The notes beneath the pieces were generated by a model. The model ran no database searches. It was given only the letters and a program-made list of their open reading frames with translations, and was not told where the DNA came from. Made by a program: the position numbers and the translations under genes. From a virus, in the UHGV virus genome UHGV-1651579: a stretch of DNA of 21,812 nucleotides; one strand, given 5' to 3'. Of this stretch, positions 437-21,812 are shown one piece after another. Each line of letters begins with the position of its first letter. Position 1 is the first letter of the stretch.

Positions 437-856
437 TTGTCTTTAACTCGCTCCAACAACATAAAAATAAGCACCAAAATAACGCCATAGACGCGCTTTT
501 ATATCCTTGTCAGTACATACCCATTACTTAACACATTAACGCGCTTAAAACGCGTTATATTGCGCTATAGAGTATGGTTAATCATTGGCTTTTAGTCTTG
601 CTATGTGATCCGCGTTTATTTGTCGGCGCGGATCGGCTCTTTGTGTTGTTTTGTATCCGCTCGCATATGATTGCCACGTTGGGCAACGTGTACGCGCTTA
701 CAGTGATTTACCCACGGATTCACATAATCACATAGCGAAAGCTATCTGGATGGCCCAGGGGCTGAAACCCCACCAGCGCTACCCCAGCGCCGCTACGCAA
801 TTTCTGGCGCGATTCCGGGTTTCTCCCGCTCAGTTTTCTACATAAAGGCGACCCCC

Positions 857-972
857 GCCGTTTCCCGAAAAAATCTTGGCCGTTTCCCGTCGGCTCATGA
901 ATGCGTTCCTCGCCGTTTCTGAAAATTTCCCTGCGGCAGCTGGTGGCTATAGAGAAAGGGCCGTTTCTGGCC
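857..972. repeat. iteron-like array of GCCGTTTCCCG / GCCGTTTCTG units (about 22-bp spacing)
   Basis: copies at 857-867, 879-889, 911-921, 959-969; related array at 4841-4972. Confidence 0.6.
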
Positions 973-973
973 C
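958..973 (-). terminator. hairpin GGGCC-N6-GGCCC followed by T-rich tract on minus strand
   Basis: lies immediately 3' of the stop of CDS 983-1465 on the minus strand. Confidence 0.45.
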
Positions 974-982
974 TCTTCTCAG

Positions 983-1465
983 TTACACGCCATCAAGGAT
1001 GTGGATGCGGTTGCTTGCGTATACATTCAGCATAAAGTTAGCGCAAAACAGTTTCCATGTGTCAACGCCAGCGGCATACGTAATGTTTTTGCATTTTATC
1101 GCATTGTTGGCGATCCGCATCCCCTGCGATACTGCTTCATCGTCGGAAAATTTGAACGACGATTGAGTTTTAATCCAGACAGAAATCTGCGTAGCGAACT
1201 CAATCAGCTTGGACTGGCAGAATCGCCCGGAGCGCACCGGGAAGACAAATGTTCCGAAGCCAGAATTTGCGACATACGCTTTCTCAATTACCCGTGAGTA
1301 ACGACGATTGCAAATGATGTCGCGTGCAATAATGCATTTTTCTTGTGCTGACAGTTCTACCGTCTCATTGTCGCGCCATGCACCAAGTACTCGTTTTTCA
1401 ATATCAGAGAACGTTACAGCGATATTGCCATGTGCGGGTGCGTTTACAGTAGCGATAAAATTCAT
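983..1465 (-). CDS. PsiB-like (plasmid SOS-inhibition family) protein, tentative, 160 aa
   Basis: ATG at 1465 with AAGGA 8 nt upstream; from memory of F PsiB: GFGTFVFPV block and C-terminal IHIL at matching spacing; family assignment needs a search. Confidence 0.5.
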   Translation of the reverse strand: MNFIATVNAPAHGNIAVTFSDIEKRVLGAWRDNETVELSAQEKCIIARDIICNRRYSRVIEKAYVANSGFGTFVFPVRSGRFCQSKLIEFATQISVWIKTQSSFKFSDDEAVSQGMRIANNAIKCKNITYAAGVDTWKLFCANFMLNVYASNRIHILDGV

Positions 1466-1484
1466 GATTAATTCCTTATCGTAA

Positions 1485-1500
1485 ATAACAAATTGTTTTC
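1485..1500 (-). promoter_or_regulatory. P1 box copy a (ATAACAAATTGTTTTC) within promoter/leader cassette 1466-1560
   Basis: near-palindrome AACAA-A-TTGTT; in gene orientation cassette reads TTGACG-N17-TAATTA-CACCAACAAG-AAAACAATTTGTT...AAGGA...ATG. Confidence 0.6.
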
Positions 1501-1640
1501 TTGTTGGTGTTAATTATCGTTGTACGAATAAGGCGTCAAAGTGGAAAGTTGCGGTAGCCGGACGGGAACAGGTGGGTTTGTCGGTTGCCTGGAGGTAAGA
1601 GGTTGGTGTTTTTAGCCTGCGGGAAACAGGATGGTCATTT

Positions 1641-1664
1641 AAGGCCACCAGCATTGGTGGCCTT
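1641..1664. repeat. hairpin element AAGGCCACCA-gcat-TGGTGGCCTT (copy 1)
   Basis: 10-bp perfect stem directly 3' of CDS 1670-1951; related copies at 2112-2135 and 8015-8036; contains Chi complement CCACCAGC. Confidence 0.6.
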
Positions 1665-1669
1665 ACTCT

Positions 1670-1951
1670 TTAGTGGAGCAGACCGATGTCGATGGTATCC
1701 CCTGAATCATCCACACGGATCATCAGCATGGCGAAGGCGTTTAGTGGATAGCTTGCGTGCCATTCAGGGAAGCGGTCATCTCGCATGAAGTCGGCAATGT
1801 CGTAAACGCAGCCCTCAAAGTGGAAGAATCGCGTGCTTACCTGCTCGTCATATTCCACATGATCCATTTCTTGCTGTTCTGTTTCCGGCAAGTCCAGCCA
1901 TGATTCAAGGAATACATTTTGTGCTTTAGGGGTAATGGTGAAATCAGTCAT
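1670..1951 (-). CDS. hypothetical protein (about 93 aa)
   Basis: track ORF 1670-2083 runs through the upstream cassette; internal ATG at 1951 has GAGGA at good spacing (alternative ATG at 1957). Confidence 0.5.
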   Translation of the reverse strand: MTDFTITPKAQNVFLESWLDLPETEQQEMDHVEYDEQVSTRFFHFEGCVYDIADFMRDDRFPEWHASYPLNAFAMLMIRVDDSGDTIDIGLLH

Positions 1952-1970
1952 GAGCATATCCTCACTGCGT

Positions 1971-1984
1971 AAACATATTGTTTT
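1971..1984 (-). promoter_or_regulatory. P1 box copy b (AAACATATTGTTTT) within cassette 1958-2040
   Basis: cassette aligns with 1466-1560 copy, including CACCAACAAG. Confidence 0.6.
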
Positions 1985-19879: not shown

Positions 19880-19909
19880 GGCTCACTATCTACTGTAGTG
19901 AGCCTTTTT
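19880..19909 (+). terminator. rho-independent terminator of repA (GGCTCACTA-N7-TAGTGAGCC + T5)
   Basis: 9-bp stem followed by TTTTT, 25 nt after repA stop; stem is itself iteron-like. Confidence 0.7.
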
Positions 19910-20351
19910 GTTTATCGGAAATGCAATATCCACTGTAGTGAGTAAAAGAAACCGAAGAATAACCACTGTAGGCAGTGCGCACAAATCGCGAAGTAAATGT
20001 TAGTGGTTGCAAACATAGATAAAACAAGGGCTGAGAGGTTAGCGGTCACTGGGTATCTCTGTTAAGTCTACTCTCTACAGCGGTTATCGTCGCTCTCCTC
20101 ATTGTTGACTATCCACTGTGAAGAGCAGAATTGGCTGACTTGACCTCTATCCACTGTAGTGAGTGGATATCCGTTTAAAACAGCGAAGATTTACTCTCCA
20201 TAGTGGATATCCGCTGGAGGGGGCATTCCATCACTCTCTATAGTGGTTGTTTGTAGTCAGTGAACGCCTGTTTACTCACTACAGTGTATAGCGACCCCGA
20301 TAATCACCAATTTACTCACTGCAGTGGATAGTTGATATCGTGGCAGGGGGG

Positions 20352-20493
20352 TTGCTCACTACAGTGGTTGGGGTGCATACCCGAATGGTGTTTTACTCAC
20401 TACAGTGGTTGGGGTGCATACCCGAATGGTGTTCTACTCACTACAGTGGTTGGGGTGCATACCTGAAGGGTGTTCTACTCGCTACAGTGGTTA
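20352..20493. repeat. 41-bp tandem repeat, 3.5 units (TTACTCACTACAGTGGTTGGGGTGCATACCCGAATGGTGTT)
   Basis: period 41 bp measured between CTCAC starts at 20355, 20396, 20437, 20478; each unit contains one iteron core. Confidence 0.8.
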
Positions 20494-20546
20494 TGAGCCG
20501 GATTCACACGCGGTGAGCTGGCTACTCACCGCAGTGGATAGTGTTA

Positions 20547-20762
20547 TCAGTGGATTTTCTTCAGCAGACCCCAGAGTGTCCCGGCCTTCGTTGCGAGCTT
20601 ACCTGTTTCCGGATCGTACATGCGCCATTCACGTCGCTGGTGGACAATATACCCATCTTCACGTTCCAGTCGTTCCAGTACGCCGGACTGCTTGAACCCT
20701 TTGGCACGCCAGTAGCCGCTTGTTTTTTCGATTTCCAGACCTGTCAGTGTAACCGCCATCAA
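20547..20762 (-). CDS. hypothetical protein (71 aa)
   Basis: ATG overlaps stop of upstream gene by ATGA. Confidence 0.5.
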   Translation of the reverse strand: MMAVTLTGLEIEKTSGYWRAKGFKQSGVLERLEREDGYIVHQRREWRMYDPETGKLATKAGTLWGLLKKIH

Positions 20763-21094
20763 CTAATCTCCTTGCAGTCATCGAAAAGGTAGCTGTCGTT
20801 CTTCGCGTGAACGCCGTATACATCACCCGATTTGTTGTAAACGAACCTATCTTTACCTACGCCAGATAGTTCGCCGTTACGTTTAGTGAGAAACGGGGAA
20901 GACAGGACACGATTATCGCGTACCACATAAAACTGTTCGCCGCGGTCCACAACCATCGCGCCGTAATTAGCTTTGACGACGTTGCGGATCAGGCCGTTTT
21001 TCGCTTCGACCACAAACATTTCGCACTCATAGACATGTGTGTCCGCAAAGACGGGGAGAGTGAGCAGCGCCAGTACCAGGGCTGTTTTCTTCAT
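20759..21094 (-). CDS. secreted hypothetical protein (111 aa)
   Basis: signal peptide MKKTALVLALLTLPVFA; two Cys in mature part; ATG overlaps stop of upstream small ORF by ATGA. Confidence 0.55.
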   Translation of the reverse strand: MKKTALVLALLTLPVFADTHVYECEMFVVEAKNGLIRNVVKANYGAMVVDRGEQFYVVRDNRVLSSPFLTKRNGELSGVGKDRFVYNKSGDVYGVHAKNDSYLFDDCKEIS

Positions 21095-21270
21095 GCCACG
21101 ACTCCTTTGAAAACGCCTAATGCTGAGTCGAAGACCAGTACTACGGCCAGCGCATTGATCATCACATCATTAACAGGCGCCAGCGCTTTACGGATTGCCC
21201 CTGTGAAGATGCAGTCGAGCACAAAGGCTATCGAGATAATAAGTAACGTGATATCTAATGAAATTTTCAT
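21091..21270 (-). CDS. possible small membrane protein (59 aa, MKISLDITLLIISIAFVLDCIFTGAIRKALAPVNDVMINALAVVLVFDSALGVFKGVVA)
   Basis: hand-translated; below ORF-track cutoff; stop overlaps ATG of 20759-21094 by ATGA; weak RBS. Confidence 0.3.
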   Translation of the reverse strand: MKISLDITLLIISIAFVLDCIFTGAIRKALAPVNDVMINALAVVLVFDSALGVFKGVVA

Positions 21271-21309
21271 GATAGGTAAATGCTAACTTATATATTTTTG
21301 CTGTAAATA

Positions 21310-21585
21310 TCACTTAAAAGTGCTGATACCCAAAATGCGCTCAAGATGGGCCGCGTCTTCATCGCTTACCAGCATTGTGTCGTCAACGTACCAGCAGCTA
21401 CCGTTGTGCCAACAAACACCGTCATCATCGATATAAATAGAATCCGCATCCATTCCTGTGTATTCAACTAGATTGCGTTCAATTGCCGCTTGAATTTCTT
21501 CATCGTTCAGCCCGTCGCACTTGATCATGAACAACGGGTAAACGTCATAGTCGGTACTAGATGAAATGCGAACCAAAGTCTTCAT
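21310..21585 (-). CDS. hypothetical protein (91 aa)
   Basis: ATG 21585 with AAGGA about 9 nt upstream (track ORF extends to 21648); P2 box 21602-21615 in promoter. Confidence 0.5.
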   Translation of the reverse strand: MKTLVRISSSTDYDVYPLFMIKCDGLNDEEIQAAIERNLVEYTGMDADSIYIDDDGVCWHNGSCWYVDDTMLVSDEDAAHLERILGISTFK

Positions 21586-21601
21586 GTGTTTTTTCCTTGT
21601 T

Positions 21602-21615
21602 GGTAAGTACTTATC
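21602..21615 (-). promoter_or_regulatory. P2 box copy 6 (GGTAAGTACTTATC)
   Basis: about 17 nt upstream of ATG 21585, immediately after a TAAGAT -10-like hexamer; followed by CAACAAGGAAAAAACAC resembling the P1 cassette leader. Confidence 0.55.
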
Positions 21616-21653
21616 TATCTTAATGGGCGCTATAAGGCGCACAATCATTGTGT

Positions 21654-21812
21654 TCAGGCTGGTGGAAAGAACTTCTCCAGCGTGTGGTTGATAGCCTTAT
21701 CAATGTGCATCAGGTGCCAGACGACCATATCTTTGCTTCCAATGCCGCGAGTGTAGATGAAGTGGTCAACAAAAACTGGCCACCGAGTTAGAGTTTTTCC
21801 AGTATCGATTTT
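21654..21812 (-). CDS. 3' end of a gene entering from the right window edge (last 52 codons)
   Basis: open minus-strand frame from 21812 to TGA at 21654-21656; not in ORF track because its start lies outside the window. Confidence 0.35.
   Translation of the reverse strand, partial: KIDTGKTLTRWPVFVDHFIYTRGIGSKDMVVWHLMHIDKAINHTLEKFFPPA

Follow-up and report, generated by a model that had tools for sequence, protein, structure and literature searches.

Excess of Chi octamers on both strands of an SSU5-type phage-plasmid, and a probable role in RecBCD-dependent repair

The window analysed here, the whole stretch of 21,812 nucleotides (21.8 kb; 47% G+C), belongs to an SSU5/pHCM2-type phage-plasmid of Enterobacteriaceae and consists of a region of small genes followed by the repA replication gene with its iterons. 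An earlier note on this DNA had treated it as a plasmid in the generic sense. It is a phage-plasmid, and among its relevant linear forms are thus, besides broken copies of the plasmid, virion DNA after injection and concatemers made in lytic replication. Virion genes are missing from pRHB17-C02_4, the closest complete replicon, so that functions of the phage stage may have no bearing on the source replicon. RecA/UvsX-like recombination genes are present in the SSU5-type family. No RecBCD inhibitor was recognised among the window's small genes by PHROG and domain family matches, and no anti-RecBCD system was reported for 1,227 contigs of the SSU5 group (bioRxiv 10.1101/2025.09.12.675607).

An exact search of both strands gave 13 Chi octamers, 7 on the + strand (GCTGGTGG) and 6 on the - strand (CCACCAGC when read on the + strand). 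These sites, and two of the hairpins that carry them, are as follows.

770..777, - strand: Chi, intergenic by the gene model, between ORF 138-359 and gene 983-1465
939..946, + strand: Chi, non-coding, 9 nt from terminator hairpin 956-973 of gene 983-1465(-)
1640..1665, no strand: GC-rich terminator-like hairpin TAAGGCCACCA-GCAT-TGGTGGCCTTA, downstream of gene 1670-1951(-)
1645..1652, - strand: Chi, spanning stem and loop of hairpin 1640-1665
2110..2137, no strand: paralogous hairpin, 96% complementary to 1639-1665, downstream of gene 2287-2661(-)
2124..2131, + strand: Chi, spanning loop and stem of hairpin 2110-2137
4221..4228, + strand: Chi, in terminator-like hairpin 4214-4228 (CCACC-GTGCT-GGTGG), just downstream of gene 4237-4455(-)
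4275..4282, - strand: Chi, coding strand of gene 4237-4455(-), GAG-CTG-GTG-GAC (ELVD), 38 nt from the stop end
4637..4644, + strand: Chi, non-coding, left edge of a 1.6 kb gene-free block
6717..6724, - strand: Chi, coding strand of gene 6691-7011(-) (DUF5983), GAG-CTG-GTG-GAT (ELVD), 26 nt from the stop end
15484..15491, + strand: Chi, template strand of RNase H gene 14951-15559(-) (phrog_531, E = 4e-75)
16236..16243, - strand: Chi, coding strand of gene 16153-16383(-) (phrog_5343), GAG-CTG-GTG-GAA (ELVE)
16753..16760, - strand: Chi, coding strand of DNA methyltransferase fragment 16586-16972(-) (phrog_111), GGG-CTG-GTG-GAG
20636..20643, + strand: Chi, template strand of gene 20547-20762(-) (phrog_804), right of repA and the iterons
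21658..21665, + strand: Chi, non-coding, upstream of gene 21310-21648(-)

The earlier note had counted at least 12 sites. The enrichment is reproduced, but the site at 4637-4644 had been missed and two positions were off by one base (769 for 770 and 16237 for 16236), all others being exact. The expectation from base composition is about 0.5, below one as had been said for a random octamer, while the caution that GC composition inflates it does not apply at only 47% G+C. Under Markov models of orders 0 to 5 the expected counts are 0.53, 0.54, 1.06, 1.90, 2.09 and 3.95 (P from 3e-14 to 2e-4), and in 100 dinucleotide shuffles of the window the mean was 0.47 and the maximum 3. The maximal order-6 model is the sole null to absorb the signal (8.7 expected, P = 0.10), because 13 of the 14 GCTGGTG heptamers in the window are followed by G and are themselves Chi. 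A Markov background had been proposed as a check in the earlier note, and the excess held at orders 0 to 5. At the density of the E. coli chromosome (217 per Mb) 4.7 sites would be expected (P = 0.0013); the window has 596 per Mb, 2.7 times as many, and in this matches phage P1 with its 527.

The non-coding part of the window has 7 Chi against 0.14-0.52 expected (14-50x), and the coding part 6 against 0.84 expected from synonymous-codon shuffling, about sevenfold, with none of 1000 shuffles reaching 6. Chi ties as commonest octamer of the window, its 24 one-substitution neighbours averaging 1.2 copies (maximum 4), its 168 same-composition permutations 0.55, and other host-typical octamers having 1-6 copies each as against 13. 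The Chi excess is genuine, specific to the exact octamer and on both strands. Spacing averages about 1.7 kb with a largest gap of about 8.8 kb, and the left 7 kb has four sites on each strand, evenly mixed.

Several sites had been placed inside a recurring hairpin. This is so for three (1645, 2124 and 4221), but the other ten have unrelated flanks and repeat amplification therefore does not explain the Chi count. Folding energies are -20.2 kcal/mol (z = -3.4) for the hairpin of 1645, -17.4 kcal/mol (z = -3.6) for that of 2124 and -14.5 kcal/mol for 4214-4228. Hairpins 1640-1665 and 2110-2137 form the left and right boundaries of a gene cassette found in some relatives and missing in others, with homology breakpoints at 1665 in 24 relatives and at 2105 in 16. 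The loop of the second, ATGC, is the reverse complement of the GCAT of the first, which puts its Chi on the opposite strand, and pLAO18 has a single fused hairpin with loop CTGC that retains Chi. The loops thus differ (GCAT, ATGC, CTGC), each still giving a whole Chi, and each of the window's three CCACC..GGTGG hairpins contains one. Of 39 anchored viral contigs 26 have Chi 1645 intact and 13 lack it; some lineages that lost it mended the stem by compensatory change, and the hairpin is thus the primary constraint there. At Chi 2124 conservation falls below that of the flanks (0.67 vs 0.95, n = 6). Chi 4221 has a conservation of 0.90 against 0.52 for the control, rank 3 of 107, and the Klebsiella relatives, with 74% local identity, keep it intact although their loop is 1 nt shorter.

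In all 7 of the 13 sites are non-coding, and on these codon usage cannot act. Chi 770 is intact in the E. coli relatives and SSU5 and absent in Cyrano, and is conserved no better than its flanks (0.50 vs 0.49). Chi 939 is lost in SSU5 but retained whole by Cyrano and both Klebsiella relatives, where local identity is 81-84%; its intact fraction is 0.71 against 0.46 for the control. The terminator hairpin at 956-973 shows compensatory changes. Chi 4637, within the conserved block GGCTGGTGGGCAGAAT, is intact in 38 of 44 related viral contigs (0.82 vs 0.31 for the control), while the adjoining 15-18 nt on its 5' side are hypervariable between lineages; ORFs overlapping it gave no PHROG family match. 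SSU5 has GCTGGGGG at the place of Chi 21658.

The six coding sites comprise four on the coding strand, all in the frame x-CTG-GTG-G and three of them sharing the codon run GAG-CTG-GTG-GA, and two on the template strand. Chi 4275 lies in a full-length member of phrog_6757 and has a conservation of 0.75 against 0.55 for the control; Chi 6717 is intact in all 10 aligned contigs and also in the Klebsiella relatives (76-77% identity). Toward repA, Chi 15484 is intact in SSU5 and pLAO18, Chi 16236 in pRHB17-C02_4 and SSU5, and Chi 16753 in the E. coli relatives and SSU5, all three being absent in Cyrano and the Klebsiella relatives; pLAO18 has ACTGGTGG in place of 16236. Chi 20636 is intact in SSU5.

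Across the Klebsiella relatives six Chi sites are intact at 74-84% local identity, as against 18-27% of background octamers, and in 71 loci from viral contigs conservation clearly exceeds that of the flanking octamers at 6 of the 8 sites with good sampling. Most Chi sites are older than the family's split into E. coli and Klebsiella branches, and their conservation is moderately above that of octamers nearby. Any one site can be lost and is dispensable, as with 770, 2124 and 1645.

With regard to the rest of the family, whole genomes of SSU5-type relatives have 231-300 Chi per Mb, 1.1-1.4x the chromosomal density, and their DNA without a counterpart in the window has 160-192 per Mb, about chromosomal. 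The strong Chi excess is regional within the SSU5-type family, and selective pressure, if any, is thus regional or weak. Chi ranks first among octamers in the SSU5 genome, with 31 copies, followed by typical enterobacterial octamers with 22-26, and third in Cyrano and pRHB17-C02_4, where fragments of one repeat come before it. By scan statistics clustering of Chi inside single genomes was not significant (p = 0.03 to 0.9).

We suggest, with a probability of roughly 0.6, that Chi has accumulated and been kept by selection in the conserved backbone as a cis signal that turns RecBCD from degradation to RecA-dependent repair or circularisation. The sites, their excess, specificity, distribution and conservation are observed; we infer that RecBCD uses them in vivo and that selection keeps them for this reason. 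On established RecBCD biology, a double-strand end on the element, whether from breakage of one of the ~5 plasmid copies, at the tail of a concatemer made in lytic replication or on linear virion DNA after injection, would be loaded by RecBCD, unwound and degraded inward. Given both strands and the spacing above, a correctly oriented Chi would in this window generally be met within ~10 kb from either direction. At Chi destructive degradation would end and RecA be loaded on the 3' strand, and the molecule could then be repaired from a sister copy or circularised via homologous sequence and not destroyed. Such a cis-acting signal would suit an element that persists as a plasmid over generations, as host RecBCD repair stays intact, unlike with a Gam- or Abc2-type inhibitor.

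A RecBCD role had already been proposed in the earlier note and is the best-supported reading, given the P1 and LLS precedents and the conservation of most sites above background, but two of its terms need correction. RecBCD loads on double-strand ends and not on nicks, and a nick matters only once a replication fork runs into it. Nor is Chi, as now understood, a mere shield: on meeting it RecBCD turns to loading RecA, and the DNA survives only where RecA and a homologous partner are available (bioRxiv 10.1101/2021.07.08.451572). A point against the proposal is that a published rule associates high Chi with phages that lack a recombination module (PMC12315714), and the SSU5 family has RecA/UvsX-like genes.

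Other readings have to be weighed. Passive drift to enterobacterial oligonucleotide and codon usage, where Chi already ranks among the most frequent octamers, would make the sites a by-product without a selected role. It would account for the near-chromosomal densities of whole family genomes and of relatives' DNA without a window counterpart, for the enterobacterial runner-up octamers of SSU5 and for the chromosomal frame of all four coding-strand sites. We consider it unlikely, as it sits badly with 2.7x chromosomal density at only 47% G+C, with the lack of similar enrichment of other host-typical octamers, with the excess in non-coding DNA and, over synonymous shuffles, in coding DNA, and with the better conservation of most well-sampled sites. 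It is no more probable that the sites merely follow from other constraints, namely terminator stems (CCACCA/TGGTGG), the conserved non-coding element at 4637 and E-L-V-D/E codons. Three sites do lie in well-folding terminator-like hairpins, with pairing restored at 1645 in lineages without Chi, three of the four coding-strand sites share a codon run and 4637 is within GGCTGGTGGGCAGAAT; but this leaves unexplained the same octamer in unrelated contexts (hairpin stems, loop, spacers, coding and template strands of six genes) and the tenfold rarity of one-base neighbours. By base counting a random-loop CCACC..GGTGG hairpin would hold a whole Chi in about 1/32 of cases, whereas 3/3 do, with three loop sequences across lineages.

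Somewhat more doubtful again is that the same Chi-RecBCD biochemistry has another pay-off, either ClpXP-dependent alleviation of type I restriction (and SOS) or the shuffling of small-gene cassettes between related phage-plasmids. Plasmids with Chi and EcoKI sites do induce RecBCD- and RecA-dependent restriction alleviation (PMC11109961), but that was demonstrated on high-copy plasmids and not on elements like the SSU5 type, and the two EcoKI sites in the window are unremarkable for 21.8 kb. Mosaicism is strong in this region, where the non-coding 35% of the DNA holds 66% of homology breakpoints and one cassette is bounded by two Chi hairpins, but breakpoints are not enriched near Chi (p = 0.18-0.55) and are strongest at promoter-proximal repeats. 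Least probable, and to our minds very improbable, is chromosome-style fork repair only, with Chi oriented with replication so that RecBCD from a collapsed fork meets it heading originward. About 75% of Chi on the E. coli chromosome is co-oriented with replication. The sites nearest repA fit (16236 and 16753 on - to the left, 20636 and 21658 on + to the right), and at most 15 kb from the origin 7/8 are co-oriented in SSU5, 6/8 in Cyrano and 4/4 in pRHB17-C02_4, these sites being homologous and non-independent. Genome-wide, however, co-orientation is 17/31, 12/25 and 9/18 respectively, none significant, the left 7 kb of the window is balanced, and cumulative GC skew shows no replichore structure. 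As a sole explanation fork repair is contradicted by the genome-wide figures, and the idea could hold at best locally, close to the origin.

The proposed cis-acting role of Chi can be set beside known systems. The E. coli chromosome has the same octamer, and its frame x-CTG-GTG-G is that of the coding-strand sites here, but chromosomal Chi lies mainly within ORFs, whereas the window has 7/13 non-coding, no polarity and the higher density. The chromosome has 1008 Chi, 1 per 4.6 kb (PMC12315714). Chi protects rolling-circle plasmid multimers according to Dabert, Ehrlich and Gruss (1992), as cited in bioRxiv 10.1101/2021.07.08.451572, and this, like restriction alleviation (PMC11109961), is an experiment in which Chi on an extrachromosomal replicon alters its fate in RecBCD+ RecA+ cells. 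Those were engineered single sites on small high-copy plasmids; here we have a natural, dense and conserved set on a ~100 kb phage-plasmid backbone.

Phage P1 is likewise a temperate phage living as a low-copy plasmid, with Chi as its commonest octamer. Its 94.8 kb reportedly hold 50 Chi, a count attributed to Lobocka and colleagues in 2004, and our recount also gave 50, with 31 on the top strand. Our count of co-oriented sites, 29/50, shows no replication polarity. Both strands are used, with no preference for ORFs, and RecBCD is needed (PMC12315714; Subramaniam and Smith, bioRxiv 10.1101/2021.07.08.451572). P1 differs in that its density is high genome-wide and not regional, its Chi cluster around pac-defined DNA ends, and its growth needs RecA and RecBCD, whereas the SSU5-type family has RecA/UvsX-like genes of its own. 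Phage LLS has 23 Chi and grows better with RecBCD (PMC12315714; bioRxiv 10.1101/2021.07.08.451572). In its lambdoid class (Zheng et al., Genome Res 2025, PMC12315714; Bobay et al. 2013) Chi is again the top octamer and far above expectation, no RecBCD inhibitor is known, and host RecBCD is proposed to serve recombination-dependent growth. However 20 of the 23 LLS sites are in one orientation and clustered at the right end of a cos genome, as against 7 + and 6 - here, and LLS is without any recombination module. On the proposed reading this Chi-rich element would be a new example of a kind already known from phages P1 and LLS.

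Chi, the octamer GCTGGTGG, is read by RecBCD of E. coli, Salmonella and Klebsiella, and SSU5-type phages, which infect Salmonella, Escherichia and Klebsiella, thus have hosts in which it is recognised. There are 13 exact matches in the window, seven on the + strand and six on the - strand. An earlier note on this DNA had counted 12; all of these were found again by exact search, but the site at 4637 had been missed and the coordinates were one base off at 770 and 16236.

Chi sites of the window by start coordinate. Conservation is the fraction of distinct haplotypes with Chi intact, and the control is the mean for all other octamers in the same alignments.
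770, - strand, non-coding; conservation 0.50, control 0.49
939, + strand, non-coding; conservation 0.71, control 0.46
1645, - strand, non-coding, in a hairpin; conservation 0.89, control 0.53
2124, + strand, non-coding, in a hairpin; conservation 0.67, control 0.95
4221, + strand, non-coding, in a hairpin; conservation 0.90, control 0.52
4275, - strand, coding; conservation 0.75, control 0.55
4637, + strand, non-coding; conservation 0.82, control 0.31
6717, - strand, coding; conservation 1.00, control 0.50
15484, + strand, coding
16236, - strand, coding
16753, - strand, coding
20636, + strand, coding
21658, + strand, non-coding

By its matches the window is a piece of an SSU5/pHCM2-type phage-plasmid. 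The closest records are E. coli plasmids with an IncFIB replicon type (95-99.7% identity), and there is 90% identity to the Salmonella phage SSU5 over 51% of the window and 80-87% identity to the Escherichia phage Cyrano and several Klebsiella phage-plasmids. Homology, synteny and a RepA-iteron replicon, which together define the SSU5 supergroup, are all present. On the SSU5 map the window lies in reverse, from about 95.6 kb down to 78 kb, with small uncharacterised genes, a DUF4942 methyltransferase, RNase H and a fragment of an adenine methylase, and then the repA-iteron region. The repA gene (18800-19855) is flanked by iteron-like repeats, located in 18142-20505 and comprising CTCACTACAGTGGTT (41-bp spacing at 20355-20492) and variants of TATCCACTGTAG; a 101-nt sequence is directly repeated at 18236 and 18619, and 18142-20505 is presumably the plasmid origin and copy-control region. 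The virion module (capsid, tail, terminase) would fall outside the 21.8 kb; it has been lost from the closest full replicon, the E. coli plasmid pRHB17-C02_4 (69.9 kb), while the E. coli plasmid pLAO18 (111.9 kb) is full-sized. TerL of SSU5 has only a weak match, to the T4-type Terminase_6N. The adenine-methyltransferase ORF (16586-16972, - strand) aligns only to positions 121-242 of a family profile with 345 positions and the gene is thus probably truncated. Homology to full-size relatives ends at about 16954 and starts again with the repA region (junction about 16954-17413), so about 15 kb of SSU5, including nucleotide-metabolism and SbcCD-like genes, is missing here and a large deletion or rearrangement at that junction separates the source replicon from SSU5.

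The earlier note allowed that G+C content inflates the expected number of Chi sites, but the window is 47% G+C and composition gives no such inflation. Dinucleotide shuffles of the window gave 0.47 sites, with a maximum of 3, and the Markov background that the note had proposed gives expectations of 0.53, 0.54, 1.06, 1.90, 2.09 and 3.95 sites for orders 0 to 5 (P from 3e-14 to 2e-4). The order-6 expectation is 8.7, because the 7-mer counts themselves consist of Chi: 13 of the 14 GCTGGTG heptamers in the window have G next. Chi is the joint commonest octamer of the window, and the other top octamers all come from obvious repeat families. Its 24 single-substitution neighbours have a mean of 1.2 copies (maximum 4) and the 168 permutations of the same composition a mean of 0.55 (next best 4), the non-complemented reverse does not occur in the window, and octamers typical of enterobacteria, including CGCTGGCG, the commonest octamer in E. 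coli (bioRxiv 10.1101/2021.07.08.451572), have 1-6 copies each. The excess is specific to the exact word.

The excess is present in both non-coding and coding DNA. The gene model was transferred from annotated relatives and checked against PHROGs, in which most of the ORFs used belong at full length to phage protein families, nearly all without a known function. The 7.7 kb of non-coding DNA has 7 sites against 0.14-0.52 expected (P <= 1e-6), and coding DNA has 6 against 0.84 expected, a number attained in none of 1000 synonymous-codon shuffles. GC or codon bias as the cause is ruled out by the Markov, neighbour, permutation, non-coding-only and synonymous-shuffle nulls. The four sites on coding strands are all in the chromosomal frame x-CTG-GTG-G, encoding E/G-L-V-D/E, and the remaining two coding sites are on template strands. 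Those at 4275, 6717 and 16236 share the codon run GAG-CTG-GTG-GA(C/T/A), for E-L-V-D/E, in three unrelated small proteins, and in two of these Chi is less than 40 nt from the stop end of the gene. From 6725 to 15483 there is no Chi for 8.8 kb (P = 0.0013 if the 13 sites were uniform). This stretch has larger genes, for an LprI-like protein, the DUF4942 methyltransferase and a restriction endonuclease (13115-14074), the last missing from SSU5 and Cyrano.

In the case of the non-coding sites, those at 1645, 2124 and 4221 are each inside a GC-rich hairpin that resembles a terminator and has the form CCACC(A)-loop-(T)GGTGG; the window has no others of this type. The site at 939 is 9 nt from a further terminator. 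The earlier view that several sites sit in a recurring hairpin holds for 1645, 2124 and, loosely, 4221; the other ten have unrelated flanks, and amplification of a repeat can thus be rejected as the cause of the count.

Chi density and octamer rank, counted with the same script; the P1 figures match those published (PMC12315714).
Window: 596 Chi per Mb, rank 1 (tied), 13 sites
SSU5: 300 Chi per Mb, rank 1, 31 sites
pRHB17-C02_4: 258 Chi per Mb, rank 3, 18 sites
Cyrano: 231 Chi per Mb, rank 3, 25 sites
P1, a Chi-rich phage-plasmid: 527 Chi per Mb, rank 1, 50 sites, 31 on the top strand

The E. coli chromosome has 1008 Chi sites in 4.6 Mb, or about 217 per Mb (PMC12315714), and the comparison with the host suggested in the earlier note puts the window at 2.7 times that density (P = 0.0013). 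The window is also denser than the genome averages of its family (P = 0.002-0.017) and indistinguishable from P1 (P = 0.37). A density of about twice the chromosomal or more, as in P1 and the Chi-rich lambdoid phage LLS, is reached by the window but by no whole relative (231-300 per Mb). Chi as the most frequent octamer, another mark of these two phages, is seen here. For a larger sample we used two conserved flanking motifs without Chi as anchors, giving 71 public viral-contig loci (662 kb), which have 338 Chi sites (510 per Mb). Chi has octamer rank 4 in these pooled loci, and the octamers above it there and in Cyrano and pRHB17-C02_4 are only overlapping pieces of one repeat. Although 95 of the 338 sites are in DNA with no counterpart in the window, after length normalisation window-homologous DNA has 901 Chi per Mb, mostly the same inherited sites counted again, and the remainder 160-192 per Mb, which is about chromosomal and rules out ongoing accumulation of Chi in new cargo. 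The excess thus belongs to the conserved backbone of the region and not to all cargo. The densest 6 kb is in the same small-gene region in all three whole SSU5-type genomes, with weak scan statistics, and a significant hot cluster was rejected (scan p = 0.03, 0.15, 0.52 and 0.89).

The sites at 939, 1645, 4221, 4275, 4637 and 6717 are intact in Klebsiella relatives at 74-84% local identity, where 18-27% of aligned octamers are intact (p = 0.03 and 0.01 for two genomes that are not independent of each other). In the larger sample Chi was better conserved than the control octamers (one-sided Wilcoxon p = 0.007, for 12 sites of which four are poorly sampled). The site at 4637 is intact in 38 of 44 related contigs, and the 15-18 nt 5' of it are completely different between lineages. 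At the 1645 hairpin Chi is intact in 26 of 39 contigs, and some lineages have GCTGATGG with a compensating CCATCA arm, indicating that the hairpin is the primary constraint there and that Chi can go. The hairpin loops vary by lineage (GCAT, ATGC or CTGC, with AGCATC in Klebsiella) and there is drift in the complementary arm, with the whole Chi usually kept, sometimes on the opposite strand. The picture from these alignments is of moderate purifying selection on the set of sites, with each single site dispensable.

With regard to orientation, the 7:6 strand balance is accompanied by no significant alternation of strands (runs test p = 0.12). Co-orientation with replication is not significant in SSU5 (17/31), Cyrano (12/25) or pRHB17-C02_4 (9/18), genome-wide polarity is absent from P1 also (29/50), and GC skew gives no replichores. 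Only the few sites adjoining repA fit the chromosomal pattern. The window thus does not resemble a chromosome in Chi orientation, and a chromosome-like, replication-oriented role was rejected for lack of genome-wide polarity.

From a double-strand end RecBCD degrades DNA as far as a Chi approached from the 3' side, where it turns to loading RecA; P1 cannot circularise its terminally redundant DNA without RecA and RecBCD, and has its Chi sites clustered where packaged ends fall (PMC12315714; bioRxiv 10.1101/2021.07.08.451572). LLS, without recombination genes, grows better with RecBCD, and lambdoid phages with a RecBCD inhibitor avoid Chi (same sources). Plasmid Chi rescues rolling-circle tails in a RecA-dependent way (bioRxiv 10.1101/2021.07.08.451572), and together with EcoKI sites gives restriction alleviation (PMC11109961). 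In the SSU5 group no anti-RecBCD system was reported from a DefenseFinder screen of 1,227 contigs (bioRxiv 10.1101/2025.09.12.675607), and we found no RecBCD inhibitor (Gam, Abc2, gp5.9) among the window ORFs scanned against PHROGs, most of them of unknown function, or among ten additionally scanned against Pfam. A sister copy should be at hand as repair template, as the plasmid copy number of Cyrano is about 5.5 (PMC9928086). From this comparator biology and the facts on the SSU5 group we infer that the sites are cis-acting switches on RecBCD, and we give a RecBCD-related explanation of the excess a probability of about 0.6. Chi would turn RecBCD from destroying double-strand-ended forms of the element, and RecBCD would then promote their RecA-dependent repair or circularisation. 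For an element that has to live with its host as a plasmid, a cis signal and not an inhibitor would be suitable.

It is improbable that Chi is simply a by-product of drift toward host oligonucleotide usage: such mimicry accounts for the whole-genome densities but not for the 2.7-fold excess of the region, the sites in non-coding DNA, the specificity or the conservation. We think it equally improbable that the sites are by-products of hairpins or conserved motifs, which is partly true at 1645 but cannot account for one octamer being reached in unrelated contexts. Chromosome-style fork repair alone, contradicted by the lack of polarity, is the least credible of the alternatives.

A little less probable than mimicry is a different selected pay-off from the same biochemistry, such as restriction alleviation or cassette shuffling. 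Two Chi hairpins do form the edges of one cassette, but homology breakpoints, 66% of them in the 35% of DNA that is non-coding, are not enriched near Chi (p = 0.18-0.55) and the strongest, except for those two hairpin edges, are at promoter-proximal repeats; Chi as a general marker of mosaic or cassette boundaries was rejected on the same data. The cassette itself (1665-2105), made up of a gene (1670-1951, phrog_1845) and the DNA upstream of it, lies between the two paralogous Chi hairpins and is present or absent among relatives, with a single fused hairpin in its place in pLAO18 and about 12 of 39 viral contigs. The small-gene region as a whole (900-7700) is highly mosaic, and its best-supported breakpoints (2024, 3675, 4117 and 4487) are at copies of the promoter-proximal repeat.

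Recurring elements of the window, by coordinate.
AAACAAATTGTTTTCTTGTTGGTGTTAAT, 29 nt, ten copies: 1486, 1971, 3619, 4110, 4488, 5896, 7257, 7686, 11724, 12927
Palindrome GGTAAGTACTTACC: 3200-3237, 10009-10033, 14926-14965, 16129-16160, 17118-17149, 21601-21625
Tandem units of about 30 nt, consensus roughly TTGCCTG-N7-AAGAGGTTGGT-N-TTTT: 1578-1641, 5526-5622

The AAACAAATTGTTTTCTTGTTGGTGTTAAT copies, which are the promoter-proximal repeat, in most cases immediately precede the start codon of a - strand gene, and the 8-mers derived from them, GAAAACAA and AGAAAACA, are the only octamers to rival Chi in count. Each copy holds the palindrome AACAAATTGTT, which may be a shared promoter/operator, much like the C1 operators scattered over P1. 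The arrangement of a small ORF with a shared promoter element and a stem-loop recalls the promoter-stem-loop cassettes of T4-type phages, reportedly described by Arbiol et al. in 2010, and agrees with the T4-like genes for replication and recombination in the family. The GGTAAGTACTTACC element is upstream of several - strand genes and may be another operator family. Two of the tandem units are just before the hairpin at 1640-1665 and three are within a gene-free block; their flanking motif TAGCCTGCGGGAAACAGG is conserved out to Klebsiella, and they may be protein-binding repeats.

The gene-free block (4456-6044, 1.6 kb) has no annotated gene in any relative, its ORFs have no PHROG match, and at Rfam gathering thresholds there is no known RNA family in it or elsewhere in the window. 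Family members from E. coli, Salmonella and Klebsiella have kept it, with identities of 70-96%, and it is strongly G/T-rich on the + strand (GC skew +0.30, AT skew -0.31), with degenerate repeats that include the tandem units (5526-5619), '..GTAATGGCGT' every 90-150 nt and 'TTTCCCTG' units at 4889-4930. At its right edge is a promoter-proximal repeat copy (5896-5924) with no ORF downstream. The block might encode a long non-coding RNA or act as an origin.

We regard as unlikely the more specific proposal that the Chi octamers are a dedicated cis-acting landing zone for RecBCD, bracketing about 4456-6044 as the place where the family generates DNA ends. On this proposal the conserved sites on both strands, several in terminator hairpins, would not be scattered passengers, with the block acting, for instance, as a packaging site or as an origin of the lytic or R-loop kind. 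The nearest Chi sites flanking it, 4637 on the + strand and 6717 on the - strand, face outward (n = 2). The proposal would place a Chi-based module for end protection in an element with its own T4-like recombinase, as an exception to the published rule that high Chi goes with no recombination module.

The family departs from that rule. RecA-like recombination genes are persistent in the SSU5 supergroup (PMC7969092), and a phage-encoded recombination module, expected to be lacking in Chi-rich phages of the P1 and LLS kind, is annotated outside the window, in Cyrano as a T4-like set (UvsX/RecA, UvsY, gp32-like SSB, exonuclease, SbcCD-like proteins, RuvC and UvsW) and in SSU5 as SSB, exonuclease and recombinase. 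Resistance genes are carried by SSU5-type phage-plasmids, which are frequent in lineages of Shigella sonnei, Salmonella Typhi, E. coli and Klebsiella that matter clinically (bioRxiv 10.1101/2025.09.12.675607). Should Chi and host RecBCD be needed for their stability or infectivity, as in P1, a mechanism of maintenance and entry would be identified for the family. The Chi-enrichment strategy of P1 and some lambdoid phages would then also be known from a third group, unrelated to them, and the group's own RecA-like recombinase would qualify the rule linking Chi-rich phages to absent recombination genes. The practical value is modest, as the phenomenon and its likely mechanism are already known.

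We found no earlier report of Chi enrichment in the SSU5/pHCM2 group in the searchable literature, subscription-only sources apart. However a phage-plasmid with Chi enriched on both strands and as top octamer is already known in P1, and the general strategy from LLS-type phages. Against these precedents the modestly new details are that the excess is regional and not genome-wide, and that sites are built into terminator hairpins. In having Chi on both strands the window is like P1 and unlike LLS, in which 20 of 23 sites are on one strand.
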